DNA of 64,000 nucleotides from Escherichia phage vB_Eco_F22, in the sequence record OP870143.1; one strand, given 5' to 3'. Both the position numbers and the translations under genes were made by a program. The notes below the pieces were generated by a model. That model did not search any database, had not been told where the DNA came from, and saw nothing but the letters and a program-made list of their open reading frames with translations. How positions within the stretch are numbered: the stretch's first letter is position 1; each line of letters opens with the position of its first letter. Of this stretch, positions 27,064 to 47,149 are shown piece after piece.

Positions 27064-28021
27064 TGTCTCATTGGCTCTGGCTGTATGGCTATTACATGAC
27101 GAGTATGATTACGTAGACAATCCTAAGTACCTGTCTGCTACCACATTGCTTAAACCTATTAAGCAAATCGTCATGAAGCATCGTGTAGATTTTAGTGACC
27201 AGTCCATTGATGTTATGGATTTCGTATCCACATCAATGGGTACTGGCTTACATGACTCTATAGAGAAAGCCTGGAAGCTGGGCCATAAGACTGCATTGAA
27301 GAAGCTAGGTTATCCTCAGCGAGTAATTGATGCAGTAGTCATTAACCCAACCAAAGCAGACTTTGCTGCTAATCCTGACCTTATCCCAATCTACATTGAA
27401 CAACGTGGAACCAAACAGGTTAAGGGATGGACTATTGGTGGTAAGTTCGACATCGTAACGGAAGGTCTGCTGCAAGACTTCAAGTCTACCTCAACCTATT
27501 CCTGGGTTGCTGGTTCCCGTGATGATGAACACAAGATGCAAGGCAGCTTGTATCGTTGGATTCACAACGACATCATTACTGAGGATGTAATTCGTATTAA
27601 CTACATCTTCACCGACTTCATGAAACACATGGCTAACAGCAATCCGAACTATCCTGCTAATCGCATTATGCATAAGGATATTCCATTGCTATCTGTCGAG
27701 AAGACTGAGCGTTGGGTAGAGGAGAAGATTCACTTAATTGAAAAGTACTGGGATGCACCTGAAGAGGAAATCCCTGAATGTACTGACGAGGAGTTGTGGC
27801 GAACAGAGCCACAGTTCAAATACTTCTCTGATGCTTCTAAGGTAGATGTACCTGGAGCCAGAAGTACCAAAAACTTTGACGATATGGCATCTGCCCGTAT
27901 CTTCATGGCTGAAAAAGGTGGCAAGGGTGCTATCAAGGTCGTGGAGGGACAGGTTAAAAGATGTCTTTACTGTCCTGTCGCATCTATTTGCAAACAAAGA
28001 GAGAGATATTTTCCATCATGA
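27041..28021 (+). CDS. PD-(D/E)XK nuclease, Cas4/RecB-like, with C-terminal Cys cluster
   Basis: GKFDIVTEG...QDFKS nuclease core; C-terminal CLYCPVASIC (C-x2-C-x5-C) plus an upstream Cys, consistent with an Fe-S nuclease. Confidence 0.55.
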   Translation: MKITNNHDVSLALAVWLLHDEYDYVDNPKYLSATTLLKPIKQIVMKHRVDFSDQSIDVMDFVSTSMGTGLHDSIEKAWKLGHKTALKKLGYPQRVIDAVVINPTKADFAANPDLIPIYIEQRGTKQVKGWTIGGKFDIVTEGLLQDFKSTSTYSWVAGSRDDEHKMQGSLYRWIHNDIITEDVIRINYIFTDFMKHMANSNPNYPANRIMHKDIPLLSVEKTERWVEEKIHLIEKYWDAPEEEIPECTDEELWRTEPQFKYFSDASKVDVPGARSTKNFDDMASARIFMAEKGGKGAIKVVEGQVKRCLYCPVASICKQRERYFPS

Positions 28022-30171
28022 GTATTGACCTTACCGGAGTAGTGCACCATCCAGCGATTGAAGAAATCGTAGATGTGCTCTGCAATAAAACCCAGAATAA
28101 CGACCGGGGATTCTTCCGTGTCGAAGTAGCCTACTTCTTGGCTAAAATGGCATCCTGCATGGGTGCAACCATCGTAACTAAAGACCGTGGTGACCTGCCG
28201 GTAAACATCTACGCTATGGCGTTGGCTACATCTGGTTTCGGTAAAGGTCACTCGGTAAATATCATTGAAGACGGGTTCATGACTGGCTTCCGTAAACGTT
28301 TTATGGAAGACACCATGCCCGTCATTGCAAATGACCGTTTATGGAAGATTGCTAACGAACGTGCTGCTCGTCAGGGTACGGACCAGAATGATGAGTTTGA
28401 TAAAGTCGAAGCAGAGTATAAACGTGCTGGGGCATTCCCATTCACATTCGACTCTGGTACAGCACCTGCTGTAAAACAACTTCGTCACAAACTACTTATG
28501 GCTGGTTGTGGTGCTATTAACCTACAGATTGATGAGATTGGTTCCAACCTCATTGCCAACGTTGAAGTACTTAACCTGTTCCTTGAGTTGTATGACCAGG
28601 GGAAAGTAAAACAGAAGTTAACCAAGAACACTGCTGAAAGTATTCGTGGTGAAGAACTGGATGGTAAGACTCCTGCTAACCTGCTGCTGTTCGGTACTCC
28701 GAGTAAGCTGCTGGATGGTGGGCAGACTGAAGACCAGTTCTATGACTTCCTCGATACAGGGTATGCACGTCGTTGTCTGTTTGCGATTGGACACTTAGAC
28801 AAGCGAGCACATGCAACGCTGACCCCGGAAGAAATCTACCGTAACCTGATTAAGCAGGATAACGTTCAATCTCTTGGTAAGTGGGCTAACCACTTCCATA
28901 GTCTGGCTGACCCAAACCTGTTTGGCTTTAAGATGATTGTGGAAGATGCAGTGGGTATTGCTTTAATTACTTACAAAATTGATTGTGAGAAAAAAGCAGA
29001 AGCTATGGCTGACCACGAAGAAATTCGTAAGGCTGAAATCTCTCACCGTTACTTTAAGGCTCTTAAGCTGGCAGGTGCACTGGCGTTTGTTGACCAGAGT
29101 TCATTCATTGAGATGTCTCACCTTAAACAAGCAATCCTGCTCGTAGAAGAATCCGGGGCAGCATTCCAGGGTATTCTCAATCGCGAGAAAGCCTATGTGA
29201 AGCTGGCTAAGTACATTGCCTCCGTAGGTAAGGAAGTGACACATGCTGACTTGCTGGAGTCATTACCATTCTATAAGAGTGGTAATGCAGCTCGTAATGA
29301 GATGATGACTCTTGCTACAGCATGGGGTTACAAACAGCACATCATTATTAAGAAGACCTTCAATGAAGGTATTGAGTTCTTCCGTGGTGAGACTCTGAAA
29401 GAGACTGATACCAATGAGATGATAGTGGCATATAGTGATAGCTTTGCTTATGACTATGTTGGTGAACGTGTACCGTTTGACCAATTACATGTATTAACCC
29501 AAGCTCCCGGTATGCACTGGGTGAACCATCACATGAAGAATGGACATCGTTCTGAAGAGAACGTTATTCCAGGATTTAACATGATTGTTATTGACTGTGA
29601 TGGTGGAGTACCTCTGCATACGTGCCATGAACTGATGAAGGAATATAAGTTCATGACCTATACCACTAAGCGTCACACCGACGAAGAGAACCGCTTCCGT
29701 CTGATTATTCCAATGAACTATGAGTTACACCTCGACACTGAGGAATACAAAGAGTTCATGAATAACGTTATGGCTTGGCTACCATTTGAAACGGATGAGT
29801 CTGCTAACCAACGAGCCAAGAAGTGGATGTCCTGTGAGACTGGTTCCTATCATTACAACCTTGATGCAAATCTGTTGGATGTACGTGACTTTATTCCTCG
29901 TACCAGTAAGAACGAGCAGTTCCAGAACCAGATGAAGGAAGTTCAGTCGTTAGACAATCTGGAGCGTTGGTTCGCTGGTCGTATTGCCTCCGGTAATCGT
30001 AATAATCAAATGATTAAGTACGCACTGGCATTAGTAGACAGTGGTTGGGACTTTGCTCAAGTACAGCAAGCCGTCTACTCATTCAATAAGAAACTGGCTA
30101 ATCCATTACCAGATGATGAATTGAATTCAACCGTAATGGTCACCGTGGCTAAACGCTTCGCTGGCAAGTAA
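28018..30171 (+). CDS. DNA primase / primase-polymerase-type replication protein with PriCT-like C-terminus
   Basis: 717 aa from the ATGA-overlap start (track ORF begins 27961); VIDCDGG and a C-terminal PriCT-like segment; replication-module position. Confidence 0.5.
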   Translation: MSIDLTGVVHHPAIEEIVDVLCNKTQNNDRGFFRVEVAYFLAKMASCMGATIVTKDRGDLPVNIYAMALATSGFGKGHSVNIIEDGFMTGFRKRFMEDTMPVIANDRLWKIANERAARQGTDQNDEFDKVEAEYKRAGAFPFTFDSGTAPAVKQLRHKLLMAGCGAINLQIDEIGSNLIANVEVLNLFLELYDQGKVKQKLTKNTAESIRGEELDGKTPANLLLFGTPSKLLDGGQTEDQFYDFLDTGYARRCLFAIGHLDKRAHATLTPEEIYRNLIKQDNVQSLGKWANHFHSLADPNLFGFKMIVEDAVGIALITYKIDCEKKAEAMADHEEIRKAEISHRYFKALKLAGALAFVDQSSFIEMSHLKQAILLVEESGAAFQGILNREKAYVKLAKYIASVGKEVTHADLLESLPFYKSGNAARNEMMTLATAWGYKQHIIIKKTFNEGIEFFRGETLKETDTNEMIVAYSDSFAYDYVGERVPFDQLHVLTQAPGMHWVNHHMKNGHRSEENVIPGFNMIVIDCDGGVPLHTCHELMKEYKFMTYTTKRHTDEENRFRLIIPMNYELHLDTEEYKEFMNNVMAWLPFETDESANQRAKKWMSCETGSYHYNLDANLLDVRDFIPRTSKNEQFQNQMKEVQSLDNLERWFAGRIASGNRNNQMIKYALALVDSGWDFAQVQQAVYSFNKKLANPLPDDELNSTVMVTVAKRFAGK

Positions 30172-31020: not shown

Positions 31021-31824
31021 ATGTCACTGTTCGGTAACTTGAAAGAAAAAACCAAAAACGTTGAAGCTGCAAAAGACACTCTTGGTGGTGGTGGCTTCGG
31101 TGCTAAAGAATCTGATATCTACACTGGTACTGTAAAAGTAGCTTACGTAGGTAAAGCTGATTCTGGTGCAGACTGGATGCAGTTAATCATCGAAAACCTG
31201 AAAGGTTCTGACGGCAATGATGCTGGTGAGTTCCGTGCTCAGGTGTACTTTACTTCCGGTAATGCTAAAGGCAATAAGCCGACTTACGAGAAGAATGGTA
31301 AAGAATACTTCCTGCCTGGCTACACTGTCATTAATGACATGATGCTGATGGCTACTGGTTGTGAACTGCCAGATGCAGACTTCGAAGAGAAGATTGTTAA
31401 AGTCTATGACTTCGACCTGAAAGCTGAAACCAATAAGTCTGTCATGGTTCCAGTTGACCTGGTTGGGCAGACTGTTACCTTCGCTCTGGAAAAGGTTCTG
31501 GAAGCTAAGCAGGTTAAAGGTGACAACGGTTACGTTGACTCCGGAGAAACTCGTGAAGTAAACGAGATTCAGAAAGTATTTCACCCGGAATTGCTGGTCA
31601 CAGTCGTCGAGGCTCAGGAAGCAGAGAAGGCTGAGAAAGAACTGACCCCAGAACTGGCTGTATTCTATGCAGCATGGCTGGAAAAGAACAAAGGTAAAAC
31701 CCGTGATAAGACCAAGGGTTCTGCTGGTGGTAATGGTAAAGGTGGCCTGCCTCCTAAACCAGGTGCAGGTGCTGGCACAGGTACTACTCCTGCTGGTGGT
31801 AAATCTCTGTTCGGTAAGCGTTAA
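31021..31824 (+). CDS. Single-stranded DNA-binding protein candidate (N4 gp45-like) with Gly-rich C-terminal tail
   Basis: 267 aa; position between replication ATPase and resolvase as in N4; no OB-fold motif verified. Confidence 0.4.
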   Translation: MSLFGNLKEKTKNVEAAKDTLGGGGFGAKESDIYTGTVKVAYVGKADSGADWMQLIIENLKGSDGNDAGEFRAQVYFTSGNAKGNKPTYEKNGKEYFLPGYTVINDMMLMATGCELPDADFEEKIVKVYDFDLKAETNKSVMVPVDLVGQTVTFALEKVLEAKQVKGDNGYVDSGETREVNEIQKVFHPELLVTVVEAQEAEKAEKELTPELAVFYAAWLEKNKGKTRDKTKGSAGGNGKGGLPPKPGAGAGTGTTPAGGKSLFGKR

Positions 31825-32379: not shown

Positions 32380-32829
32380 ATGCAAATCGTTCTGAACCAG
32401 TCTGAAGTAGAAGCTGCTATTGAAGCTTATGTAAACGAACAAGTTAATCTTGCCGGGGACATTAATATCCTGGTGAATGCAGATGGTACTGCCACCATTG
32501 GAATCAATGAAGAGGTCGGTCATAGTGATGACACTCCCCCCGTGGTAGAGAAGAAGACTCGCCGTCCTCGTAAGAATCCACAGGAAGCCAAACACCGTCC
32601 AGTAGAACCGGAACCGGCTGTTGAGGATGAAGCTGAAGAAGAGGTAAAGGAAGAAGAAACCCAGACCTCTACTGGTGGTGTGAACGAGAGTTCTACGCCG
32701 GAAGCTGAAGAAGTAGTAGCTGAACCAGAAGCACAAGAAGAAGCTGTGCAGGAGGAAGTTAAGGCAGAAGAACCAGCAGAGAAACCTGCTGCGAAGCCTT
32801 CACTGTTCGCTGGCCTGAAACGTAGTTAA
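32380..32829 (+). CDS. Hypothetical protein with highly acidic Glu/Ala/Pro-rich C-terminal half
   Basis: 149 aa; C-terminal 70 residues are mostly E/A/P/V. Confidence 0.45.
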   Translation: MQIVLNQSEVEAAIEAYVNEQVNLAGDINILVNADGTATIGINEEVGHSDDTPPVVEKKTRRPRKNPQEAKHRPVEPEPAVEDEAEEEVKEEETQTSTGGVNESSTPEAEEVVAEPEAQEEAVQEEVKAEEPAEKPAAKPSLFAGLKRS

Positions 32830-33231: not shown

Positions 33232-33999
33232 TATCGTGAAGGGTTCTGTCAGAATCCTTTGAGATAGGAACTCCTATCATAACCTTTCTTAACTTAATCT
33301 TTGCCGTATGGCACTGACGCTAGGGGTGGCCCCCCATCCGTCAGACAGACTATTTTAAGAATGGGTTATCTCAGAAAATGTAAAGCAACATTCGGGTTAA
33401 TCAATGGCCTCTCCTATAGAGGCCATTTCTGAATCTTAGGCTATATCCCAAAGGTTAATATCTTTGGGATAAGGCTTCAGATCCCTTATCAAACTAACCG
33501 CTCAATGTTGAGCATTTTAATCACATAAGCCCCTATATGGGCTGGGTTAAATGTCGGATAGCATAGCTACCTACAGCATCGAATTGTTAGGTCTTACATG
33601 CAATATAGGGTATAAAGGGAGGACTCGTCCCCTCCCTCCTATTATGACATCCTATCAATGAGTACACTTCAAGTGGTAGGCCTGCCGCTCTTGAAATTCA
33701 TCTGCAAAGCTGGAAGTGTACTCTTTGATAGTTTTCGTAAGCGATTATGCGGTTTTTTAGAAACGAACCAATAACATAAATGCAAACGATGATGTTGTTC
33801 TGATGGCAGCCTAATAAGCCAAGCGTCAGTCAGGAGTGAGTCGTCCTGATTATCAAACGACCGTGGAGTACTCCCGTCCATGTATTAGAAACGGGGGACC
33901 AATTACCAGTTGCACGAGATGGCTTGACATGTTCAAGTTTGGACTAAGTGTGACACCGCTAGATTGGAGGGCTGCTGCGGTAAGCTATAGACTCCAACC

Positions 34000-34270
34000 G
34001 GAGGTTCGAATCCTTCACTGGTAACCAATTCAAAGTAGCACTGCATAGAACGCGAAAAGGTACAGCGACGTTAGCCATACGGTATTGTGAGGTTCGAGTC
34101 CTCACCTATGAGCAGTGACGACTGCAACAGTGCTACTCTGAATTGGAAGAATTAAGACGGGTCTGGTGAAGTAGATGGGGTTCGATTCCCCCAGGTGGAG
34201 TAATCCACTAGCGTGCTTGGTGCACGAATAAGACTTAATACTGGTGGTTCGATTCCATCCCCCGTTACCC
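34000..34270 (+). other. Four tRNA-like T-arm modules (GGTTCGAATCC, GGTTCGAGTCC, GGTTCGATTCC x2) that do not fold into canonical cloverleaves
   Basis: T-loop motifs spaced 88, 88 and 67 nt; module 1 is followed by ACTGGTA-A-CCA whose 7-nt complement TACCAGT lies about 107 nt upstream. Confidence 0.3.
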
Positions 34271-34461
34271 AAAGTCGCCAGGTACTTATGGCAAATGGGT
34301 AGTAACGAACTAGTCATTCGTCAAACGCCCACCTAATTACGAGTCAGCAAGAACGCCTTCATTTAAACTTAAACAAAAAAGCTTAACGCAATAATTATGT
34401 AGGGGTATGTAAGGATTGCGAAGAAGGAGCCAGTTAGAGCCTGGCATGACTCACCCATTAT

Positions 34462-34535
34462 GTCCACTTAGCTTAGACTGGGAAAGCAACCGACTAATAA
34501 TCGGAAGGTCACTGGTTCAAATCCAGTAGTGGACA
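34462..34535 (+). tRNA. tRNA gene (74 nt); anticodon loop CTAATAA, anticodon tentatively AAT; CCA not encoded
   Basis: Manual cloverleaf: acceptor GTCCACT/AGTGGAC (7 bp), D-stem GCTT/AAGC with GG in loop, 4-bp anticodon stem CCGA/TCGG, T-arm ACTGG-TTCAAAT-CCAGT. Confidence 0.5.
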
Positions 34536-34769
34536 CCTATTCAGCAGTAACATAGTCCTGATTGCATAGCACTCTAAAGACAACACTGGTAAGACAGTCC
34601 AGTGGCTGCTAATGTATTGTTATTCCCCTCGACGGGAATTTCGCTAGTGAAGGTAACACTTAAAAATCCAAAGCTACGTCTTACTACTATCGGGCTATCA
34701 ACCCACGGTCGCTTAACCCTATAGCGGTAGTAGTTTGACGGCCTGCCTCGTTGACTGCGTTAAAGTCAC

Positions 34770-34811: not shown

Positions 34812-34994
34812 AGAACTACTTATTGGACGATTCATATGATTGACCTAATCTTAACACCGTATGCCTATGAGGTAACGGATAACCAAGGACGTAAGTCTTT
34901 GGTGTTTGCAGGTAGCGTAGCCTATAACAACGCAGTCATGTTTAAATACAAACTCAAACCACTCTATGAGGCTAATAATGGCAACAGTAAGTAA
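34809..34994 (+). CDS. Hypothetical small protein (61 aa; TTG start in track, ATG at 34836)
   Basis: ORF starting inside the T-run of the upstream terminator; weak RBS. Confidence 0.3.
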   Translation: MRTTYWTIHMIDLILTPYAYEVTDNQGRKSLVFAGSVAYNNAVMFKYKLKPLYEANNGNSK

Positions 34995-35358
34995 AGAATC
35001 AATCGAAGCTAAGATTAAGAGCGTCTACTATTTCAACGGTGCTGATGCAGTAAAGTCTGCCTTCGTTAACCCTTCTGCACTTCCGGCAGACGATTTGTCT
35101 AACCTGGGCCTGGTAACCTACTGTATTATCATCCTGGAAAACGGCTTCAAAGTTGAAGGTGTATCTGCCTGTGTTGACCCGACCATCTATGATGAGCAGA
35201 AAGGTCGTCAGTATGCATATGAAAACGCATTCAATAAGATTTGGGAAATAGAGGGTTACCTGCTGCGTCAGGCACTGCATGAGAAAGAGGAGACTGCTAA
35301 GGCTCTGGCTTCCTTTGCAGAAAACAACACCTGTGATGGTGGTGGTTGCACCATTTAA
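34978..35358 (+). CDS. Hypothetical protein (track ORF 34966..35358; GAGG RBS favours ATG 34978)
   Basis: ORF; terminator-like hairpin at about 35440. Confidence 0.45.
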   Translation: MATVSKESIEAKIKSVYYFNGADAVKSAFVNPSALPADDLSNLGLVTYCIIILENGFKVEGVSACVDPTIYDEQKGRQYAYENAFNKIWEIEGYLLRQALHEKEETAKALASFAENNTCDGGGCTI

Positions 35359-35476
35359 CAAACAGGTATATGGTAGTTTTTACCGAAAGGTACTGAACTA
35401 CCTGTCATGTGGTAAGGCTCTAGAAGCCAAAACAAAACAAGCCCTCCTAGTGAGGGCTTTATCATTTGAGGTAGTT

Positions 35477-35965
35477 ATGTCAGAAGAAATTAAAGTTCAC
35501 TTCACCAACTACATTGGAACCAAGTGTGTAAATGGTTTCAAGATGAACAAGGAAACATATTGCAAACTTCGTGGCTGGGATGTGCCTGCTAATGAAGACC
35601 CATTAGAAGTAGGTTACCTAGTAGAATACCCGGATTCTAAACCTAACCATGAGCAATTCCGTGGTTATATTAGCTGGTCACCGAGGGCTGCATTTGAGGC
35701 TGCATATCATGATGTAGATAAAGGCTGTAGCTTTGGTCATGCAGTAGAACTTATAAAACTAGGTCACAGACTGACCCGTAAAGGCTGGAACGGTAAGGGA
35801 ATGTATATCACCCTAGTATCTGGTGAAAATTGGGCTATGGATAAACATGAGAATACCATATGTGAGAAACGGGATTGGTTGGGCATAAAAACTGTTGATG
35901 ACCAGTTTATGCCTTGGGTTCCATCCCAATCGGATGTATTAGCCGAAGACTGGATAATTCTATAG
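35477..35965 (+). CDS. Two-domain protein with C-terminal DUF2829/Tad2-like domain (candidate anti-defense)
   Basis: VELIKLGHRLTRKGWNGKGMYITL resembles the DUF2829 signature; GAGG RBS before ATG 35477; track ORF 35279 overlaps upstream gene. Confidence 0.45.
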   Translation: MSEEIKVHFTNYIGTKCVNGFKMNKETYCKLRGWDVPANEDPLEVGYLVEYPDSKPNHEQFRGYISWSPRAAFEAAYHDVDKGCSFGHAVELIKLGHRLTRKGWNGKGMYITLVSGENWAMDKHENTICEKRDWLGIKTVDDQFMPWVPSQSDVLAEDWIIL

Positions 35966-35973
35966 GAAACTAT

Positions 35974-36267
35974 ATGGAACTCTTTAAGAAAGGGCAGCTT
36001 ATACCAAAGCGTATTGGTGGATTGCATGTTCATCGTAAGGCAAGACATCGTTTAACCTTTGGTTGTGATGTACAAATTGATGGTAACAATTGGATTGCCG
36101 TACCAGATACAGGAATTGCAATGGTTCACTGTAAGAAGTTAGGTATTCGTAGAAACAATGGTACTTATCAAAATGTACATGCTGATTTTGTAGATATTCA
36201 TTTTGAAGCCAACAGGATTGATTATGTAATCAAGACTGAACGAAAAATTCTTGTAGTTAAGAAGTAA
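35974..36267 (+). CDS. Hypothetical protein (track ORF 35914..36267, trimmed to ATG with AGGA RBS)
   Basis: Last + strand ORF before the convergent terminator. Confidence 0.4.
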   Translation: MELFKKGQLIPKRIGGLHVHRKARHRLTFGCDVQIDGNNWIAVPDTGIAMVHCKKLGIRRNNGTYQNVHADFVDIHFEANRIDYVIKTERKILVVKK

Positions 36268-36272
36268 AATAG

Positions 36273-36300
36273 AAGCCCCTCATTAGAGGGGCTTTTTTAT
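36273..36300. terminator. Bidirectional terminator at the convergence of rightward and leftward transcription
   Basis: Hairpin GAAGCCCCTC-ATTA-GAGGGGCTT flanked by A-run upstream and TTTTTTATTTT downstream, between + ORF end 36267 and - ORF end 36302. Confidence 0.7.
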
Positions 36301-36301
36301 T

Positions 36302-39300
36302 TTAGTTTACCAGGTTCATCCAAGGGTTCAGGTTGTGAGCACGTAGACCTTGCCCAAAGCCCCATGAGTAATCCAGCCCACCCTTAGCAGCAATGCTAAA
36401 GATGTTGTCCTGAATAGGCAGACCAACATTACCAAACATGGTAGGAGTTGGAGCCAGCATTGCCATTGCTGCATGCACCGGGTTATTACGAATCATGGAC
36501 ACTGCAACCTTAGCTGAACGAATCTTAAAGTTGTAGAACCACATCAAACCAACACTTTCCATATACCCACGGAAGCGACCTGGTAAACGGTCATAGTTAA
36601 CAAACTCTTCAGTTACACGTCCCAGTGCTTCTTCACGAGTCTTACCTTTACGCTGAGTCAATTCATCATAGATGATTGCTTTAGCGATAAAGTCAGAGTA
36701 CTCAACTGTCTTTTGGATACCCTGGAACAGAGCAGTATCCTTGGTGATAAGTGCATAACGTCCAGCAGTACGTACAGACTTAGGTAACTTATCTGCCAGC
36801 TTTTCCATATATTCGTGAAGTTTGCCTTCAGTAATCAGAATGTCATCACGACCGATACCAGCATCTGCAATTGAAGAGAACTCACCAGCTTCCAACAGAG
36901 GCCAGATGCTCATACGCTTATGGCTATCAGTAATGGACTGAATCTCAGCCTTAAGTTTACGAATCTGGTTCGGGTTAGTAGCTGCACGTAATTCTGCTTC
37001 TGCATCTACCTGACGCAGACGAGATTTCAGGTACTGGTTAATCTCAGCAGTTTTCTGTGGAATGCTTTTAGCAATGTTCTTAACCGGTACACCACGGGCA
37101 ACCATCTGGTAAAGGTTAGCCAAGAAGTTAACAGCAGGTACGACTACTGACTTAACTACAATCAGAGTCTTGGCTTCTTTAACTAAGTTTTGAACCAGGT
37201 TCTCACCACCCATTGTGTACTTATAAGCACGGTTGCCAAATACACCCAGCATAGCTTTCTTGAAGGTATCCAATGTTTCCGGGGACCAACGAGAATTACC
37301 AGACCAGGCATCACCTACAGAAGCTGCACGATAACCAAGTGCATCATTCAGCATGTCACGACGCACCCACAGTTCACCCTCACCAAACAGACTTTCTGCT
37401 TTCTGACGTGTTTCACTGTTCATTAGCTTAAGAGCATCAGCAGTTACTGGGTCCAGTTTAGAACCAAGAAGGTTAACGTACTGGGATTTATTAGAGGCAG
37501 ACATCTTAATGTCGTTCTCATACATGCTATGCAGGTTCTCAATCAACATATTGTTGAAACGCTGAGCCTTAGCTTCTTCCACCTGACGACCACGCCATAC
37601 ACCAATTGCACGGGCAAGGTGATTCTCGCCTTCAATGTGCTTCAGCATGTTAGGGTCAATGGATTGCTCATAGGCAACCACATTACCTTTGTCATCATAT
37701 ACAGGCAGAAGTGGTTCATTACCACGTTCACCACGAGCCAGTGCTTTAGTGATACGGTCTACGGAAGGCTTGTCAGTAATACGACCAGCTACCATCGAAC
37801 CCATCGTAAAGCCCGTACCGATGTCTACACCACCAGCAGTATTACGAACGTTTTGTAGGATACCCTGTGAGAAAGGAGCCTGTGCCTGTACCGGTGCGAA
37901 GTAGTAGCTGCGTGCTGGACCACGGTTAGCAGAGCTACCTTGATAAGTACCCAGACGTACATAAGATTTCTCAATCAAATCTCCAAACTGGCTATCTTCA
38001 GCAACAATCAGATTAACACCCTGTTTAGTCTCACTAGGGATATGCCCTTTGTACTGGTTCAAGGTTGCACGCATATCAGACTTGGCTTTAGCCATTTCAT
38101 CTTTACGCTGACCAACCAGGTAAGAAGTAGCAAAGTCCATTCCATCAACTTCTGTCTGAGCCAGAGAAGATAACATCTCACGGTCGGACTTGTTCATTGC
38201 TTCCAGTGCATACAGGGTAATCAGTTTATCCAGTTGAGCTACATCTACAGTAGAACGAGCAGCCTGACGTTCACCAAGCATACGAGAGATTGCAGTAGCA
38301 TTACGCAGCAGGTTATTACCGACTGTACCGTTAATCATGAACTGAGCCAGTTGCTTAGATTTACGACTAATAAGAGGCCAGTTACGACCAGCTTGTTTCT
38401 GCAAATCTGCTTCCAGCTTATTCACTTCACGGTCAACAATCTTCTGGTCAGATAGTAGGTCACGGATTTCAGCCAGAGACATAGTGTCACGCAGAACAGC
38501 TAAGTCAGTTTTACCCATGCCAGTGTGCATTGCTTTCCACTCATCGTTAGTCAGCTTACGGCTGAACTTAGATGCGATAGTGGTAGGCAGGTGTTCACGG
38601 AATTGCTGACGGTCTGCTTGTACCTGTGCACGAACTGCTTTAATCAAATCGTATACAGAAGCATTACTCTTAGTACGACCAGTTAAGTCATTAACCAGGT
38701 CATGGAAGGGTTGCCATACCTTACCCTGGTTCATTGCAGCCATAACACCTTCAGCTACAATTGCACCATTCTTCTCAGTAGCAATAGCAGCCACCAATTG
38801 TGCAGCATGGGCAGCACCTTTAACCAATGGATTCTTAGTATTAGCTGCAACTTCGCGAGCACTTTCTAAAGCACGAGTAGACAGTGCATCAATAGAATCC
38901 ACCAGATACTGGTTAGCACGATCAATAGCATTACCACTAGGAGTAGCAACGGAATCATAGAATGACTGTGCATTGAGGCTAGTCTGCATGATTGTCTGAG
39001 CCAGTGCATCCATACCTTCCTGTACGTTGGTAGCTTTAGTGTCACCTGCTACACGGGCATTCAAGCTAGACATTGCAGCAGTACCAATGTTAGTCAGCAT
39101 TGCATCAATGGTATTACCGGATTTCTTATCTGCTTTCATAACAGGAATGTTAGCCAGTACGTTACGTACCTCTTCACTTACCATTGCCAGACCAACAAAG
39201 GTAGGCAGTAAGGAAGAACGACCCTGTGCATCAAACTCGATATTGTTAGCACCCATGATGGTATCGAACTTCTGCTGTGCATAGTAACGGTCAGCAGGGT

Positions 39301-42300
39301 TGGTACTATCCGGGTCAGCCATGAATGCTTCAACGGTCAGATTCTTAGTAACGTGTGCATAGTATTCCTGTGCACGAGATAGAGCAGCCGGACTAATAGC
39401 AGCCTCAGTAGCCAAAGCAGCAACGATATTAGTGAACAGGCGTTGTTCCTGCATATTCATAGTGAAACCATGAGCCTGAACATCACGGGTTACTTTAGTA
39501 GCATTCACTACTGCATCAGAGAACTTACCTTTACGAATTACTTGTTGCACTGGTTCTGAACCAATGTAGTTAGTAATCAGCTTATCAAAGGTCTGCCCCA
39601 ATTCTTCCAGACGGGTATTGTCGCCATACGCCTTGTTATGGAACAAGGTAGTGTCCTTGGATACAGCAGCCGTAGGAGCCTGCCCACGCATAACTACGGA
39701 AGAGTTAAACAGTAAGCCAGAGAACATATCATCTGCATTAGCAGGAGCTTTCTTACGACCGAATACCAGACGCTTGATTGCTTCATACACAGACTGAACC
39801 ATAGTCTTCAGTGCAGTAGTCTTCTTCTGCTTACTAATTAGTTCACGGTTGGTTAAGCCCCAAGCCATGTATTCGTTCAGTGCAGCAGCTTTAGCCATTG
39901 CCGGTTCAATGAAGCCATTAGACAAGTGACCGTTAATGGTATTGAGTGCATCAGCATATGCTTCACGTACTGCCGGGGTTTCATCCTTAACATCCAGAGT
40001 ACGGAACTGGTTCATCAGGTCTTCAATATTCTGAACTGCTTCATTAGGAGTACCCTCATAATGAGCCAGTACAGATTCAAAAGTAGAAGCATGTACCAAT
40101 TCATGAACCAGAGTCTCTAAGGAAGGGGTAACTAAGTAGATGGTCTTATCATCAAAGTTAGTCCAGCCATATGCATTACCAGCTTCGGCAGCTTCAATAT
40201 CTTCCGGTGCTGGGCGAGTAATGTTCTTCTCAATAGCATAAGCATCCAGCTGAGCAGGAGTACCGTAAACAACCTTGTAGTCTTTAGCAGCAAGGGATTT
40301 CTGTACTTCTTTCAATACCGCTTGCTGTTCAGGAGACATCTCTTTAGCCAGCTTAGTGATAGCAGTATTAGACAGCAGACGTACACCAGACTTCAGTACA
40401 CGACCAACCTGTTCCATTGCTGGTACTTCTTTAACAGGTGTTTCTTCAGCAGGTACTTCTTTCACTGGTTCTGCTTTAGCAGCACGTACTGCATCACGGC
40501 GCTTATTTAATTCGGCATCAAACAGTTCGTTTAGCTTAGCTACTTGCTGGTCTACAGTCAGACCTTCCAGAGAGATTTTACCGTTGTTCACATAAGGAGC
40601 ACCTACAGCAGCCATCTGGTCAACAGTGGTCTGTACCTGGTTCATTACTTTGTGGCGAATATCTACACCTAAAGCAATGTTACGCAGATTACGTTCAATG
40701 AGGTTAACACCGGATTTCTCAATCATATCAATCTTATACTGCCTGTCTCCCTCAACACGACTGATATGGGAAAGCTGTTCAAAATCTAAAGCGGAACGAG
40801 CAATGTCATCAATTGTCTTATCTGACAACTTATTAAAGTCTACGTTCTTCATGAACTTAGAGAAGGAGTCATACACGTTCTTAATAGGATTGCCCTGCCA
40901 AGAAGTATAAACAGCCTCATTAGCTTTACGACTTGCATCAGTGATGTCATTGATACCAATGTTCATACCATCAAAGATTTTCAGGGTATTCTTCGGAGCA
41001 CCTTTCATAGTAGAAAGGGTCTGCATCATCATGCCATCACCAGTACCAATGGTCATAAATGGAATACCTGCAACACCTGCTTGTGAAGGAGCATAGATGC
41101 TCATTGGCACACGCATACGGTCGTCTAAGTTGGTAGCCAGTACTTGGTTAGCAACATCAGTATTCTCACTGCCAGCAATGTAAAAAGTCTGTGAACCAGT
41201 CTCAATCATTGGAGCCAGTGGAGACAGGGATTTCTGAATTTCATTCAGCTCTTCCTGTGTTAAGAAATCGCCCTTCTTCCAGGTTGGGTCTTTTTCTTTT
41301 TCTGCCAGTTTAGCCTGTACTGCTTGTTGGAACATATCCTGCAATACTAAAGACTGAATTTGAGTAGCCTTCTGCAAGTTCTCAGTGGAGTGCATCAGAC
41401 CTTCACCAACGGTGAACCGGATACTTTGTCTCATTGGTTCAACGAAGAAGTGCAACATGTTCTCTTGTAGGTTCTTAAGAGCATCACCAGATACAGTAAA
41501 CTCCTGGGGATCTAACTCACCAGTCAGAGCACCATCTACTTCCTTAATAAATAACTTACCTTTACGCTTAGCTGGAATCTTACCAGTCAGTGCTTCCATA
41601 GAAGTAAGGAAGGTATCCAGCATAGCCTGAGCATCTGCCTCAGACGCAGCCTCCTTACCAAACAATGCCATAGCTGGGGAAATGCTAGGGTCAGTAGCAC
41701 GTGCTTGTAGAACGTCACTGAGGCGTTCGTAGATGGCGTCAGTAATTGCACTAACCATCTTGCCAGCAATACCACGAGCACCAGAACCATAGATGGTAAT
41801 GGTCAGGGGGTTTTTAGCGATGCCACGTTTCAGGTCCAGAGTACCGTCTTCATTCAGGTTAAAGTCTTTAATGAACAGGTCCATTAGCTTCTGGAGATGA
41901 TCCATCTGGCTCATAACAGGAACGTTGTTACGGTAAGCACTACGTAATTCATTTAGATAGAATTGCAAACTATTGGTAGATGCTTCATACAGGTCAACAT
42001 TATCGTCGATAGAGCAATGTTCGTTCATCGTTTTACCAGCACGACCAAAGAACAAACCACCCTTGGCAGTATTCTTAATCCAATTTGGAGTGAACTTACC
42101 TCCAGTCATTAATACCATTGCGTTGATTGGGCCGTTGGTTACACCATCGGCTTCAACGTACAGAGGAGTATTAAAATTAGCACGGTTATCACTGTTCAGG
42201 TAACGGGCATATTCCATCAGAGCCATGAGAGCCACGAAGGATTTGTTATCACCCAAAGAGGTCTTCAGGATATCTACTGCATCTGTCGGTAAGTGCCCAG

Positions 42301-45300
42301 ACTTATCAAACTCAACCATCATATCAACAGCAGGTTTCAATTTGCCTTCCAGAGCTTTAGTCAACTCTTCAGACATAGCTTCACGGGACATTTTATGTAC
42401 CTTGATGCCTAATGCCTGAGCCAGTCCTAACTGGAAGTCAGAGAACGCTTGGCTATTTTCATTACTCAGGTCAATAGTAGAGAAGGTTGGCAGAATTGCT
42501 TCACGAACCAGCTTACTGGATTGTGGGTTGTTCTTACCAAGCATCTGCATACGACCTACTCGGGTCATGTTATAGCCATAGTGAATGGGGGTATCCAAAC
42601 CATTCTCTTGTTCTTTTAGATGATTAATTAAACCGAACAGAGAATCATATGCCATAGATACTGATAAGTTCTTACCTTCCAGTGATTTAGCATTATTTTT
42701 ATTCAGCAAATCAGGATTAAGAGTACCAGCACCCATTAGTTCCAGAATGCTGTCTCGACCCAATGCTTCATAGAAGTTAACCATCGGCATGTGTACACGG
42801 AACTCAGTAGCCTGTTCAGCTTTCAGTGCAGCTTTCTGTTCGGGGGTATTCTTAACAGCAGGATTACGTAACTGAGTTTGGGCCACGGAAGGAATGTCGT
42901 CACCAAAGTACATTTTCTCTTCCGGATTTACCAACACAGCTTCTTCAATTGCTGTAGGGAAATTATTAATAGGGTCTTTATCAGCCAACTTATTAATAGT
43001 GTACAGACCAATAGTCTTATTAGAGTCCGGGTCAATCTCAGACACATCCAGCATAGTCTCTGTAACTGCACCCATCTCAATGAGGGAAGACAGAATCTCT
43101 GTAGCCATTGCCACTGGAATGCCTTTTGTATAACCCAGTGGTGCATTAGGGTTACGATTCAAACCCCAATAAGATTCAATCTTCTGAGCCAGTGAGCTAG
43201 TAGCTTCGACCAGGGTCTGGGCATTCTCAAATTCAGCCAGAATACTTTCTGGTAACAAGGATGCTTCTACTCCAGTAATGGCAGCTACGTCTTTTATGTC
43301 TTTAATGGCAGCATTCTGTGCAGCAGTCAGTCGCCATTGCAGACCAGCAAGCACGGCAGTCTCTAACAACTGGTCATTGAACTTAAAGGTATCACCATCT
43401 TTTTCAACGATATTCAGCAGTTTGCCACCTACCCAACGGTTAGCTTCAGTACCTTCTGCAAAACGTTTACCAACGTTCTTATTAGCAAGGAACTTAGCCA
43501 GTCGTTCAGACAGAGTAGTCTTCAGTGTTTCCCCAAAGTCCATCAAATCTTGGTAACGTTCTAACACATCACCCGTGAGAGCGTTATTTTCTTTTTGAGT
43601 GAATGCTTCAAAGCGAGCAGCAGAAGACAGTGCTTGCTTAATATCAGCTAAAGGAGATTCAGAACCAATGGTACGGGACTTGGGTTCTTCTGGCAGGGTA
43701 AATGCTTTCAGGAACTGGTTCGGTGTCTTTTCATTGTTATAGACAGGGAACACTGTTTCCATCTCAGAAAGAGGTTTGCCACCTACTGTATAATCTGCTT
43801 TTAGCTGAGCCAGCGATACTTCATCTTTCTCCACGTTGTTAGTGTTACGGCCAGAGGTATCTACACCAACCAGAATCTGTGCATTATTGGCTTCAACGAA
43901 AGATTGAACAGTATTGAATTGTTCAGCGGTCAGCTTTTGATTATCAAACAGTTGTAGGGACACAAACGGTTGTTCACTGCCTTTATAGAAAGTAGAGCGA
44001 ATAGAACCAGTATCCAAAGACATATCACGATAGCCATCATGCCCAAATACGTCAGACAGGCTGATATGGTCGCCATTAGAACCAACCACAGTACCATCAG
44101 CAAACAACCACGGACTCTCTCTACGGTCACCACTCTTATTAAGAGTTTCCTGTGAAATGGTATTTTCTTTCACATAAGCATCTCTTTCAGATTCAGTAGG
44201 TTGCTCAATGGTATCCTCATTAGTGAGGGTAGCATCTACTGTTTCAGGCTTAGTAGTAGAAACTTCTTCTGTTTTTGGGCTAGTCTCCTTAGTAGGAGCA
44301 GTCTTATTTTCTACCACTGGTTTAGCTTTAGGCTGTACAGTAGTAGTGTCCTCTTGCACTGGTGCAGGAGTTTCATCAACCTGATTCACTGGTTCATTAG
44401 TCTGTTGAGACTGAGTGGCATCAAGACCACCTTGACGGAACTCTTTAACTACCTGGGCAGCAGGCTTGTTCAGACGTGAATCCAACGAGGTAACTTTCAC
44501 ATGAGAAACATTAAGCTCCGGGTAAGCCGTAGCAAGTGCATTAGCAATATCAGCTACGGTTTTGGCCTCCAGTCCTACTTGCTGTGCAAACTTAACAGAC
44601 TTGGTATCGTAAGGATTAACACCGAGGCCAGTACGACTACGTACCCATTCACGGGAAGGCGAGAGAGCCTGATAATGAACAGACTTATTCTTATCCGCAT
44701 TCCCCGAAATCAGATGCTCATTCAACGCTCCGACCTTATTCTGCATGTGCTGGGCGAACTTCATAAAGTCGCTCAGATAAGCGGAGGCCAAATCGAAGTT
44801 ACCAGAGTTATACGCAGAACGAATGCGTTTCGCATGTTGCAACGCAGAGTACTGTCCTTCATTAGAACGAGACTCGTCGGTTTTAATCTGTTTACTAACA
44901 ATGTCTTGAGGACGTAAGCCTAGTTCTTCTGCTTTAGCGTCGAACTCTCGTGCACCCTGTAACAAGGCAGCAGCAGATTGCAGGGCAGCACGTTGACGAT
45001 TCCCCAGTGTAATCTTACCTTCGCTTGCGTGCTTCAGAACCATGTTCACTGAATCTGCATCCAGTACTTCTGGAGATACATCAGCAGCCATAGCAATGTT
45101 GTTTGCTTGGGCTTGATTAGCTTCTTCAGTAGCTTTCAGCTTACCTGCTTCAGCCTGTTCCTGAATCATAGAATGGATGGCACGGAATGCACGAAGTACT
45201 TTAGGGGTATTCTGTACGTTAGCCATCAGACCAGAGAACTGGTCTACGATTGCAGCAGCAGGGGAACCCTGTTCCAGATTAGCCAGAGCACCCGGGTCAC

Positions 45301-47149
45301 GGTTAATGAAGCTATCCATGGACATGATGTTGTCATACATCTGGATTGCAGCTTCCATTTGAACGTTAGGGTCTTCGGCAGTATTAACCAGGTCAGCCAT
45401 CTTCTGAATAGCTTCTACACGGTTAGTGGAACCAGAAACAGCTTCACGGATTACTGGGTTAGCTTGTTCCAACTCTACCGGGTCGAACTTCATTGCCTGA
45501 GTTAAGTCAGCAGCATACTGGGTAGCAGCAGCTTTCTCTTCCGGAGAAATATCCATTGCATCTACTGCTTCCTGTACAGTTGCTTGTGCTTGTTCTGCCT
45601 GAGCAGCAGCTTCCTGTGCAGCAGCATTAACCGTAGCATCAGCTACAGGGGATGCTTGTTCATTACGCTTGGCAACTTCTTCACCACGTTGAACCAGAAT
45701 GTTAGTAAGAGGAGATGCAGCTTTTGCTAGTGTTTTACCAACCAGAGAAGCACCAGCCAGGGTAGTACGAAGAGTAGGGCCAGCAGCAGCACCGGCAGCT
45801 TTAACAGTTGCACCAGGGACTTGAGCAACTCCAGCACTACCGAAGCCATAAAGTGCACCAAGACCTGCTTGCTCACCAACCCCTTTGAGGGTGTCACGGG
45901 ATGCATCAACGTTTTCTTTGATTGCAGTATTCTGTGCGAACTGACCAAAGCCGGATTGAATACCTTCCTCTACAGTTTCACGCAGCATATTAGAACCAGC
46001 ACCTGCCAGTGAACCTACCTTAAGTGGGTTAAGTTCAAAGCGAGATACCAGTGGGCCGGTAGCAGCAGCAACTGGAGCAGTTAAGCCAGCAGCAATGATA
46101 CCTGTTTCAGATGCAGTCTGACGACGTGCTTCATCAGGAGATAAACCATCAGCAATATGCTGTTGGTAAACAGGAGACTTACTTGCCAGTTCTTGGTGGG
46201 ACATCTTCATGATTTCAGAAGCAGTCTGTTGGTATGCACCACCAGCTTCCATACCACCGATTGCAATAGCAGGTGCAGCAACACGACCAGCAGACAGTGC
46301 AACCTGTGCAGGACGTGAACCTAACCCAGCAGCTAAGGTAATACCCTTAACAGCTTTATCACCACCTACCATTACTTTACCGAGTGCAGATACACCACGA
46401 ATAAGTGGACCACCGGTAAAGAGGGAACCAACACCTTCACTCAGTCCGTCAGAGGCAGCCATACCATTATCAAGTGTATTAGCAACAGAATCGAAAGCAT
46501 CACGACCAATACGAGACAAGGAGGCAACCAAATCGTTCTCCCCATTTTTGATGTCTTGTTCATAAAGTTTCTGATTCTTTTGAGCAGAAATCTGGTTCTG
46601 ATTCTGAACAACCTTACGGGTAGCATTCAGTGCATCAGACTGTAGATTGTGTACGCCTTCATTCAACCAATCCATCCCGGAAGCAATGGTTGCCCCGGCA
46701 TTATCATTGACCAAACCTGTGCCAAGAGCAGCAATGCCCCCAAGGGTATTAGCAACACCAAGACCAACACCAGAAAGAGTATCGCCAAATGCTTCTGCGT
46801 TAGTACGTTGTTTAGATAAGTCCTGACGTACAACATCCGCAGCATTAGCTCGGCTATTAAGAATTTGTAGACCTTGCTCATTACCGTATTTATTAATGAT
46901 TTCTAATGGGGAGGCTTGAGTGAAATCTGCCTGAAGTGAACCTGGTTCGAATGCACCGATTCCAAGATTACCTACACGTCCGGTCTGGAGATTGTAAGCA
47001 TTCTCTGGGGTTAATTGGAAAGGGATTTGCCCTTGTGCAGCTTGCTTCTGAGAGGTTGCAGTAGAGACATCGACTCGCTTAGCATTAGTGATGCTGTCTG
47101 CGAAACCTGCCAGACGGTCAAATGTTGACATAGCATGTTTCCTGTTCAA
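36302..47149 (-). CDS. Giant virion RNA polymerase (N4 gp50-like vRNAP), 3615 aa
   Basis: Single uninterrupted 10.8-kb ORF; central T7-like palm motifs LYVEADGVTNGPINAM (A), KNPLTITIYGSGARG (B), KIFDGMNIG (C); first gene of the leftward block. Confidence 0.8.
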   Translation of the reverse strand: MNRKHAMSTFDRLAGFADSITNAKRVDVSTATSQKQAAQGQIPFQLTPENAYNLQTGRVGNLGIGAFEPGSLQADFTQASPLEIINKYGNEQGLQILNSRANAADVVRQDLSKQRTNAEAFGDTLSGVGLGVANTLGGIAALGTGLVNDNAGATIASGMDWLNEGVHNLQSDALNATRKVVQNQNQISAQKNQKLYEQDIKNGENDLVASLSRIGRDAFDSVANTLDNGMAASDGLSEGVGSLFTGGPLIRGVSALGKVMVGGDKAVKGITLAAGLGSRPAQVALSAGRVAAPAIAIGGMEAGGAYQQTASEIMKMSHQELASKSPVYQQHIADGLSPDEARRQTASETGIIAAGLTAPVAAATGPLVSRFELNPLKVGSLAGAGSNMLRETVEEGIQSGFGQFAQNTAIKENVDASRDTLKGVGEQAGLGALYGFGSAGVAQVPGATVKAAGAAAGPTLRTTLAGASLVGKTLAKAASPLTNILVQRGEEVAKRNEQASPVADATVNAAAQEAAAQAEQAQATVQEAVDAMDISPEEKAAATQYAADLTQAMKFDPVELEQANPVIREAVSGSTNRVEAIQKMADLVNTAEDPNVQMEAAIQMYDNIMSMDSFINRDPGALANLEQGSPAAAIVDQFSGLMANVQNTPKVLRAFRAIHSMIQEQAEAGKLKATEEANQAQANNIAMAADVSPEVLDADSVNMVLKHASEGKITLGNRQRAALQSAAALLQGAREFDAKAEELGLRPQDIVSKQIKTDESRSNEGQYSALQHAKRIRSAYNSGNFDLASAYLSDFMKFAQHMQNKVGALNEHLISGNADKNKSVHYQALSPSREWVRSRTGLGVNPYDTKSVKFAQQVGLEAKTVADIANALATAYPELNVSHVKVTSLDSRLNKPAAQVVKEFRQGGLDATQSQQTNEPVNQVDETPAPVQEDTTTVQPKAKPVVENKTAPTKETSPKTEEVSTTKPETVDATLTNEDTIEQPTESERDAYVKENTISQETLNKSGDRRESPWLFADGTVVGSNGDHISLSDVFGHDGYRDMSLDTGSIRSTFYKGSEQPFVSLQLFDNQKLTAEQFNTVQSFVEANNAQILVGVDTSGRNTNNVEKDEVSLAQLKADYTVGGKPLSEMETVFPVYNNEKTPNQFLKAFTLPEEPKSRTIGSESPLADIKQALSSAARFEAFTQKENNALTGDVLERYQDLMDFGETLKTTLSERLAKFLANKNVGKRFAEGTEANRWVGGKLLNIVEKDGDTFKFNDQLLETAVLAGLQWRLTAAQNAAIKDIKDVAAITGVEASLLPESILAEFENAQTLVEATSSLAQKIESYWGLNRNPNAPLGYTKGIPVAMATEILSSLIEMGAVTETMLDVSEIDPDSNKTIGLYTINKLADKDPINNFPTAIEEAVLVNPEEKMYFGDDIPSVAQTQLRNPAVKNTPEQKAALKAEQATEFRVHMPMVNFYEALGRDSILELMGAGTLNPDLLNKNNAKSLEGKNLSVSMAYDSLFGLINHLKEQENGLDTPIHYGYNMTRVGRMQMLGKNNPQSSKLVREAILPTFSTIDLSNENSQAFSDFQLGLAQALGIKVHKMSREAMSEELTKALEGKLKPAVDMMVEFDKSGHLPTDAVDILKTSLGDNKSFVALMALMEYARYLNSDNRANFNTPLYVEADGVTNGPINAMVLMTGGKFTPNWIKNTAKGGLFFGRAGKTMNEHCSIDDNVDLYEASTNSLQFYLNELRSAYRNNVPVMSQMDHLQKLMDLFIKDFNLNEDGTLDLKRGIAKNPLTITIYGSGARGIAGKMVSAITDAIYERLSDVLQARATDPSISPAMALFGKEAASEADAQAMLDTFLTSMEALTGKIPAKRKGKLFIKEVDGALTGELDPQEFTVSGDALKNLQENMLHFFVEPMRQSIRFTVGEGLMHSTENLQKATQIQSLVLQDMFQQAVQAKLAEKEKDPTWKKGDFLTQEELNEIQKSLSPLAPMIETGSQTFYIAGSENTDVANQVLATNLDDRMRVPMSIYAPSQAGVAGIPFMTIGTGDGMMMQTLSTMKGAPKNTLKIFDGMNIGINDITDASRKANEAVYTSWQGNPIKNVYDSFSKFMKNVDFNKLSDKTIDDIARSALDFEQLSHISRVEGDRQYKIDMIEKSGVNLIERNLRNIALGVDIRHKVMNQVQTTVDQMAAVGAPYVNNGKISLEGLTVDQQVAKLNELFDAELNKRRDAVRAAKAEPVKEVPAEETPVKEVPAMEQVGRVLKSGVRLLSNTAITKLAKEMSPEQQAVLKEVQKSLAAKDYKVVYGTPAQLDAYAIEKNITRPAPEDIEAAEAGNAYGWTNFDDKTIYLVTPSLETLVHELVHASTFESVLAHYEGTPNEAVQNIEDLMNQFRTLDVKDETPAVREAYADALNTINGHLSNGFIEPAMAKAAALNEYMAWGLTNRELISKQKKTTALKTMVQSVYEAIKRLVFGRKKAPANADDMFSGLLFNSSVVMRGQAPTAAVSKDTTLFHNKAYGDNTRLEELGQTFDKLITNYIGSEPVQQVIRKGKFSDAVVNATKVTRDVQAHGFTMNMQEQRLFTNIVAALATEAAISPAALSRAQEYYAHVTKNLTVEAFMADPDSTNPADRYYAQQKFDTIMGANNIEFDAQGRSSLLPTFVGLAMVSEEVRNVLANIPVMKADKKSGNTIDAMLTNIGTAAMSSLNARVAGDTKATNVQEGMDALAQTIMQTSLNAQSFYDSVATPSGNAIDRANQYLVDSIDALSTRALESAREVAANTKNPLVKGAAHAAQLVAAIATEKNGAIVAEGVMAAMNQGKVWQPFHDLVNDLTGRTKSNASVYDLIKAVRAQVQADRQQFREHLPTTIASKFSRKLTNDEWKAMHTGMGKTDLAVLRDTMSLAEIRDLLSDQKIVDREVNKLEADLQKQAGRNWPLISRKSKQLAQFMINGTVGNNLLRNATAISRMLGERQAARSTVDVAQLDKLITLYALEAMNKSDREMLSSLAQTEVDGMDFATSYLVGQRKDEMAKAKSDMRATLNQYKGHIPSETKQGVNLIVAEDSQFGDLIEKSYVRLGTYQGSSANRGPARSYYFAPVQAQAPFSQGILQNVRNTAGGVDIGTGFTMGSMVAGRITDKPSVDRITKALARGERGNEPLLPVYDDKGNVVAYEQSIDPNMLKHIEGENHLARAIGVWRGRQVEEAKAQRFNNMLIENLHSMYENDIKMSASNKSQYVNLLGSKLDPVTADALKLMNSETRQKAESLFGEGELWVRRDMLNDALGYRAASVGDAWSGNSRWSPETLDTFKKAMLGVFGNRAYKYTMGGENLVQNLVKEAKTLIVVKSVVVPAVNFLANLYQMVARGVPVKNIAKSIPQKTAEINQYLKSRLRQVDAEAELRAATNPNQIRKLKAEIQSITDSHKRMSIWPLLEAGEFSSIADAGIGRDDILITEGKLHEYMEKLADKLPKSVRTAGRYALITKDTALFQGIQKTVEYSDFIAKAIIYDELTQRKGKTREEALGRVTEEFVNYDRLPGRFRGYMESVGLMWFYNFKIRSAKVAVSMIRNNPVHAAMAMLAPTPTMFGNVGLPIQDNIFSIAAKGGLDYSWGFGQGLRAHNLNPWMNLVN

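Follow-up and report, generated by a model that had tools for sequence, protein, structure and literature searches.

N4-like phages carry an anti-signalling hotspot that extends from the primase gene to the virion RNA polymerase (vRNAP) gene and includes Tad2, Tad3, Acb4, Sequestin, and Bes1/2 (bioRxiv 10.64898/2026.06.04.730250). The closest described relatives of the protein reported here are SPO1 Tad2 (gp34.65; 8SME/8SMF/8SMG) and ModTad2 (9EIB/8V3E), both of which are phage-encoded single-domain proteins of 88-89 aa from accessory regions. In the structure of SPO1 Tad2 with 3'cADPR, the main contacts are made by W25, N26, W73, and D79, and secondary contacts by I63, T65, D67, H71, S76, and T78 (bioRxiv 10.1101/2023.05.01.538930). 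The ligands of Tad2 homologues vary and include 3'cADPR, His-ADPR, N7-cADPR, cyclic dinucleotides, and cUMP/cCMP (PMC12393519; PMC10680739).

Sponge domains also occur in fusions. For instance, Tad2-Acb4 (Pasteurella phage Pm86), Tad2-Sequestin, and Acb4-Sequestin (Ab09 gp59, YH6) each join a sponge to another small phage domain, and both partners are proven sponges. Sequestin (PF21825) is a 3'cADPR sponge that was discovered via its fusions to Tad2 and Acb4 (bioRxiv 10.1101/2025.07.12.664507), and PF13876 corresponds to Acb4, an anti-CBASS sponge family (bioRxiv 10.1101/2024.12.30.630793). In RyR Tad (gp68 of Pectobacterium phage vB_PatP_CB1), an N-domain is followed by a gcADPR-sponge domain, which is RyR Repeat12-like, all-alpha, and dimeric. 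[quoted passage not shown] In addition, pdAcrIIA7 (9KZR) has a Tad2/DUF2829 core with an N-terminal extension and is still tetrameric (PMC13133391).

In this study, we analysed 64,000 nucleotides of Escherichia phage vB_Eco_F22 (sequence record OP870143.1; this whole stretch is called the window below) and focused on a gene whose product joins a Tad2 domain to an additional N-terminal domain of 83 residues, named nd here. Taken as a whole, the gene product is best explained as a Tad2-family sponge with which the phage counters host defence, and we consider this explanation quite probable. Its identity as a Tad2-family sponge gene is held with high confidence, and by analogy with the described Tad2 proteins, the nd-Tad2 protein most probably neutralises Thoeris signalling.

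The gene and its place in the hotspot

F22 is an N4-like coliphage (Gamaleyavirus, Schitoviridae), and the DNA of the window is 92-95% identical to that of Gamaleyavirus phages including Bas96, E20, NAN33P5, and Mimir124. The features around the nd-Tad2 gene are as follows.

27961..30171, primase gene, hotspot boundary upstream of the nd-Tad2 gene
31021..31824, ORF in the position of the annotated SSB in the related phage Mimir124
31824..32378, + strand, Bes1 homologue (RuvC-like, N4 gp46-like), hotspot landmark; 41% identity to Ab09 gp60, E=7e-47
34966..35358, + strand, Acb4 homologue (N4 gp49/Sf6 gp66 family), upstream neighbour; PF13876, E=6.3e-25
35439..35459, + strand, intergenic GC-rich hairpin of 8 bp with a weak T tract, terminator-like (terminator scan)
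35468..35471, + strand, Shine-Dalgarno-like GAGG, 5 nt before the ATG (direct reading of the sequence)
35477..35965, + strand, complete nd-Tad2 gene, 162 aa plus stop (ATG at 35477, TAG at 35963-35965)
35477..35725, + strand, N-terminal domain nd, residues 1-83, a conserved, predicted beta-alpha-beta-beta-alpha module and homologue of the RyR Tad N-domain
35726..35962, + strand, Tad2-like (PF11195/DUF2829) sponge domain, residues 84-162, assigned from Pfam, PDB sequence matches, Foldseek, and pocket residues
35974..36267, + strand, gene for a 97-aa protein (phrog_29107, E=2.9e-47), downstream neighbour
36271..36296, both strands, terminator hairpin with an 11-bp stem and T run on + and a 9-bp stem on - (terminator scan)
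36302..47149, - strand, vRNAP gene (3615 aa), convergent

The nd-Tad2 gene lies within the published anti-signalling hotspot of N4-like phages. This assignment is based on the Acb4 and Bes1 homologues, with the primase and vRNAP genes as boundaries. RyR Tad also comes from the hotspot of an N4-like phage; however, its gene is found beside the primase gene, whereas the F22 gene is found beside the vRNAP gene. A Sak4-like (AAA_24) gene is among the genes upstream of nd-Tad2. Bes1 reportedly assists phages in escaping type II Thoeris (bioRxiv 10.64898/2026.06.04.730250). The next ORF (32380..32829, + strand, 149 aa with an acidic tail) occupies the position of Bes2 in Ab09 and has no significant similarity to Bes2. 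About 1.2 kb (33300..34540) are without a long ORF. This stretch includes a tRNA-Ile gene (34462..34537), whose anticodon, AAT, is unusual, and an Rfam match below threshold that resembles tmRNA_permuted (33692..33814; 38.8 bits vs a gathering score of 47). The latter may be a degenerate tRNA-like element.

Since the gene at 34966..35358 belongs to PF13876/Acb4, two sponge-type genes stand side by side in F22. The start of the Acb4 homologue overlaps a small ORF (34836..34994, phrog_34266). A sequence search of the Acb4 homologue against the PDB gave no match, and five hotspot proteins gave no match in NCBIfam. Between the two sponge-type genes, 17 nt 5' of the nd-Tad2 start codon, is the hairpin at 35439..35459, and the records of PhAPEC5 and PhAPEC7 have 'terminator' features at this position. 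This element might reduce read-through, or it might be a regulatory hairpin of the N4 type.

The first-pass annotation had placed the gene at 35477-35965 and had described it as the penultimate + strand gene before a convergent terminator. Both statements hold: the ORF has 162 codons and ends with TAG, and only the ORF at 35974..36267 lies between it and the terminator hairpin of the convergent vRNAP gene. The 97-aa product of this last ORF has no match in Pfam or NCBIfam, and the same slot holds unrelated small genes in Mimir124 and Moonfish. Such variation between close relatives would be expected of a cargo slot, and we regard the gene as variable cargo of the hotspot and as a candidate for an anti-defence function.

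The product is identical (100%) to F22_0059 of Escherichia phage vB_Eco_F22, matches phrog_872 over its full length (E=1.7e-65), and has 380 homologues; at least 80% of the protein is encoded in 92 phage records. Start codons differ between records. The F22 record begins the gene at 35336 (209 aa), the Bas96 protein has 144 aa, and most others have 162-166 aa, while the longest possible ORF called mechanically reaches upstream to 35279. We favour the start at 35477 because it agrees with where 72 aligned homologues begin (MSEEIKVHF.../METKV...) and with the ribosome-binding site. The 209-aa form is probably an over-extension, since it would cross the intergenic hairpin and overlap the 3' end of the Acb4 gene.

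The C-terminal Tad2 domain

The C-terminal part of about 80 residues had been described as DUF2829/Tad2-like, with the peptide GHAVELIKLGHRLTRKGWNGKGMYITLVSGENWAMD (residues 87-122) quoted for it, and the Pfam result agrees with this description. Residues 85-161 matched PF11195 at positions 2-72 of the 73 in the profile (E=2.1e-23; 83.1 bits vs a cut-off of 25), which as a sequence match is far beyond chance. Among the matches listed, PF11195 was present in all of at least 120 homologues. In a phmmer search against PDB chains, the best-scoring relatives were ModTad2 (9eib/8v3e, E=4e-16) and SPO1 Tad2 (8sme/8wje, E=7e-14), followed by HgmTad2/AcrIIA7 (8kbi, E=1.5e-10, with the match broken into two stretches) and pdAcrIIA7 (9kzr, E=1.9e-10).

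The predicted structure points to the same family. An AlphaFold2 monomer model of the nd-Tad2 protein, built with an alignment of 72 homologues, had a mean pLDDT of 91.2. The best 24 Foldseek matches in the PDB were all Tad2/AcrIIA7 structures, including 8smf, 8wje, and 9eib (E from 7e-7 to 2e-5; target-normalised TM up to 0.85), and the model superposed on the SPO1 Tad2 crystals. The C-terminal domain thus has the predicted Tad2 fold, in which an N-terminal helix is combined with an antiparallel beta-sheet and loop helices. In these matches, the identity was 40-45% for chains of SPO1 and Mod Tad2 and 29-30% for Hgm/Spt.

Furthermore, the residues that contact 3'cADPR in SPO1 Tad2 are largely kept. 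According to the alignment, W104, N105, I137, T139, D141, W147, S150, and D153 of the F22 protein are identical to their SPO1 equivalents, and only two contacts are substituted (T78 by S152 and H71 by M145). All homologues (72/72) keep SPO1 W25, N26, T65, W73, S76, and D79 unchanged, and 64/72 retain D67. In SPO1 numbering, the F22 protein and these homologues have I or M at position 63, S or T at position 78, and M or V at position 71. The replacement of H71 counts against the sponge explanation given above.

Thus, the F22 protein shares with SPO1 Tad2 and ModTad2 the PF11195 domain, about 40-45% identity over that domain, the same predicted fold, six identical residues (W25, N26, T65, W73, S76, and D79 in SPO1), and an origin in a phage accessory region. 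It differs from them in the extra N-terminal domain, in the two substituted contacts, in an insertion 5 residues shorter than that of SPO1, and in its host, the Gram-negative E. coli; its likeness to them is known from the sequence and the model. Residues 84-162 are a bona fide Tad2 domain in their sequence, in the fold predicted for them, and in the residues of the pocket, and membership of the Tad2 family is established on every feature testable in silico. The Tad2-like anti-defence reading of the first-pass annotation is therefore supported by the profile, the AlphaFold2 fold, and the pocket residues.

This call is correct but not new, because orthologues have already been so labelled and the N4-like hotspot has been published. 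For example, the orthologues in PhAPEC5 and PhAPEC7 are recorded as 'DUF2829 domain-containing protein', Moonfish gp18 (Shigella phage) as 'Thoeris anti-defense 2-like protein', and the Mimir124 orthologue as 'anti-CRISPR protein'.

The N-terminal domain nd

An extra N-terminal domain of about 80 residues had also been proposed, and about 80 residues do lie outside the Tad2 match. Residues 1-83 gave no match in Pfam or NCBIfam, and none in the PDB by sequence and profile searches. An exhaustive phmmer search of nd against 1.84 billion cluster representatives found 1111 proteins (E<=1e-3). The nd-containing proteins range from 88 to 658 aa, and nd may be N-terminal, C-terminal, or internal. One spurious match, P0127 (1815 aa, with 12 apparent nd matches), was set aside because it is a repeat protein with no relation to nd (profile E=0.29).

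In the best 147 of the 1111 representatives, the Pfam matches were PF21825 (49), PF11195 (39), PF13876 (18), and the Acb2/Tad1 hairpin (5). The domain census of the same 147 proteins gave 40 nd-Tad2 and 50 nd-Sequestin fusions (9 of the latter being Acb4-nd-Sequestin), 9 other combinations of Acb4 and nd, and 14 cases of nd alone. Tad2, Sequestin, or Acb4 is thus fused to nd in 99 of them. In 31 others of these best 147 (P0121-P0268), nd is followed by at least 45 residues without a recognised domain. Further anti-defence domains may be hidden in these tails, some of which open with a stretch resembling a degenerate Tad2 helix and others of which are helical or unique. A short variant of nd of about 47 aa (YIGTK..AW..D.DG..GY.VKY.DGY.SWSP..VFE.AY) was seen in Tad2 and Sequestin fusions of Ruegeria and Pseudomonas.

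Across phyla, nd sequences share about 45-55% identity. Seven positions are invariant and 17 nearly so, and most of these are aromatic or charged; K16, Y28, R32, W34, Y47, E50, Y51, N57, Y64, W67, and Y77 are very highly conserved. It recurs beside at least five kinds of sponge domain, namely Tad2, Sequestin, Acb4, Acb2/Tad1, and RyR. Moreover, a stand-alone nd gene of 78 aa is found in Erwinia phage phiEaP8 (L007, 2504..2740), where no further + strand gene intervenes before the convergent vRNAP gene; the nd-Tad2 fusion holds this slot in F22. We conclude that nd is a separate, autonomous, and strongly conserved module. Many nd fusions are listed in the homologue tables that supplement the Tad2 and Sequestin papers, and nd is not discussed in the accessible main text of either paper. 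No experimentally tested nd-Tad2 fusion was found in the accessible part of these tables.

Several known families were considered for nd. No profile or fold likeness of nd to Tad2, Acb4, Sequestin, Acb2/Tad1, or Lockin was found. Acb4 was rejected: residues 1-83 of Ab09 gp59, which had suggested it by their length, are a true PF13876 domain, and gp59 has no nd; relatives of nd do occur inside other fused sponges, such as Acb4-nd-Sequestin. Sequestin was rejected, as PF21825 adjoins nd on its C-terminal side in the fusions, and a diverged Tad2 was rejected too. Lockin was rejected by inference, since it is reported to be absent from INPHARED phages, in which nd is frequent. Identity of nd with one of the binders of TIR proteins or effectors, Tad3-Tad8, is unlikely, since the hotspot paper recognises Tad3 and yet terms the gp68 N-domain an 'unknown fold' (bioRxiv 10.64898/2026.06.04.730250).

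The relative that was found is RyR Tad. With hhalign, the nd profile matched residues 2-68 of CB1 gp68 with a probability of 96.7% (E=4.6e-10, 67 columns), and BLASTP of nd against gp68 gave E=1e-5. The two share the motifs Y..(T/H)K.V.A.PM, GYLV.Y, and SWSP..VF, and a BFVD fold search with nd matched a Yersinia phage TG1 protein that has an RyR domain. On these comparisons, nd and the RyR Tad N-domain are homologues. Nevertheless, the sponge domains that follow are different: that of RyR Tad is all-alpha and dimeric, whereas a Tad2 tetramer would be expected in F22. The N-terminal extension of pdAcrIIA7 is also different, being a 'head' of 48 residues in two helices that has no relation to nd; it is nonetheless a precedent for an N-terminal extension on a Tad2 core that is compatible with the tetramer (PMC13133391).

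By analogy with gp68, we favour a role for nd as a strand-swapped dimerisation or assembly part that couples sponge oligomers. This preference is based on the gp68 structure and on the negative result for gp68_N alone. As the leading inference, nd would form a strand-swapped dimer and tie sponge units together, which would serve stability, valency, or higher-order assembly, and it is probably not itself a binder of the Thoeris type I signal. In the AlphaFold2 models, the first strand of nd (residues 10-13) appears in the full-length model only and is missing from the model of nd alone, which is at most compatible with a strand swap.

Another reading is that nd is an unrecognised sponge or a binder of an immune protein, so that nd-Tad2 would be a dual inhibitor like Tad2-Acb4 and Acb4-Sequestin, with the difference that in F22 the partner is a putative binder. 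Tad2 would then take up the Thoeris signal, and nd a second target. The discovery of Sequestin followed the same guilt-by-fusion reasoning, and Tad2, Sequestin, or Acb4 is carried by 99 of the best 147 representatives, the nine Acb4-nd-Sequestin triples included. Further points in its favour are the five proteins that also have the Acb2/Tad1 hairpin and the RyR-domain fusions. Stand-alone nd genes, one of them in the slot before the vRNAP gene in phiEaP8, the very high conservation of aromatic and charged residues, and the likeness to known sponges in being small and dimer-forming also fit a binder. However, gp68_N of RyR Tad was inactive against type I Thoeris, and the net charge of nd in F22, counted from the sequence, is about -3. 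We rate this reading as tentative. An own function for nd can be argued because its conservation exceeds what a linker or dimeriser would need and because it has stand-alone genes. A binding module with its own target is kept as a possible, though doubtful, role since the conserved residues are aromatic and charged, the gene can be independent, and the association with sponges is near-exclusive. In the same way, it is conceivable rather than likely that nd represents a new widespread counter-immunity family of phages, acting as a sponge for another signal or as a binder of a host immune protein. If so, it would have been overlooked for want of a Pfam entry and because it invariably shows up as the 'extra' portion of sponges of the Tad2, Sequestin, Acb4, or RyR kind.

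Target signals and meaning for Gamaleyavirus phages

Judging from the structures of SPO1, Hgm, and Mod Tad2, the Tad2 domains of F22 would assemble as a homotetramer, and pockets between protomers would bind and sequester the Thoeris signal made by TIR proteins. The ThsA effector would then stay inactive. The target signal is not readable from the sequence because the ligands of Tad2 homologues differ widely. Since the canonical gcADPR pocket is conserved, 3'cADPR is the default ligand; the likeliest ligands would be 3'cADPR and 2'cADPR, and His-ADPR or N7-cADPR may also be bound.

Alternatively, the Tad2 domain might mainly sequester a signal other than that of Thoeris, such as CBASS cyclic dinucleotides or the cUMP/cCMP of Pycsar, in a second pocket at the V-shaped dimer interface. 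Some Tad2 homologues do have a second pocket that binds cyclic dinucleotides or cUMP (PMC12393519; PMC10680739), and F44 of SPO1, which occludes this pocket, aligns with K123 of the F22 protein (R/K in 36/72 homologues), although this loop is variable and its alignment cannot be relied on. The pocket insertion of HgmTad2 is long (residues 32-72; PMC10680739). The variable insertion between the equivalents of N26 and I63 has 31 residues in the F22 protein vs 36 in SPO1 Tad2, and the long beta2-beta5 insertion of the HgmTad2 type, about twice that of SPO1, is absent from the alignment of the F22 protein. Because the insertion needed is about twice as long as that of SPO1, a cyclic-dinucleotide pocket of the HgmTad2 type is not expected. 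With the canonical gcADPR pocket fully conserved, Thoeris signals stay the default, and a mainly non-Thoeris target seems improbable.

To our knowledge, E. coli has type I-E/I-F CRISPR-Cas systems and not the tracrRNA-dependent type II, which argues against reading nd-Tad2 as an anti-CRISPR of the AcrIIA7 type that binds tracrRNA or guide RNA, as the Mimir124 label would have it. This reading draws on the homology of the Tad2 core to AcrIIA7/HgmTad2 and on the reported binding of tracrRNA in vitro by AcrIIA7 only with its head removed (PMC13133391), but it is very improbable, as full-length pdAcrIIA7 with its N-terminal extension was inactive as an Acr (PMC13133391), the Acr activity of HgmTad2 was not reproduced by Li et al. 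(PMC10680739), and the F22 protein is nearer to SPO1 and Mod Tad2 than to AcrIIA7 and is missing the long insertion. The 'anti-CRISPR' labels stem from AcrIIA7 homology and are unlikely to apply.

With the Tad2-family sponge as the preferred explanation, the nd-Tad2 gene lies directly 3' of an Acb4-type sponge gene in the hotspot, and F22 thus probably carries side-by-side countermeasures to CBASS and Thoeris signalling. From these adjacent countermeasures, we predict that Gamaleyavirus phages, which serve in E. coli phage studies (e.g., Bas96 of the BASEL collection), should resist CBASS and Thoeris. They may also trigger guard systems that sense sponges (e.g., Panoptes).

As a lead, nd itself is more useful: it is highly conserved, has no Pfam entry, accompanies at least five sponge families, and also occurs alone. 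An answer to whether it is a scaffold or a binder would explain a recurring design of phage sponges, and nd could serve as a 'handle' for searching the unannotated domains fused to it for new anti-defence functions. If nd is indeed a counter-immunity module, the F22 protein would be a dual inhibitor, and the 1000-plus clusters that contain nd would mark further anti-defence domains in 'nd-X' fusions.
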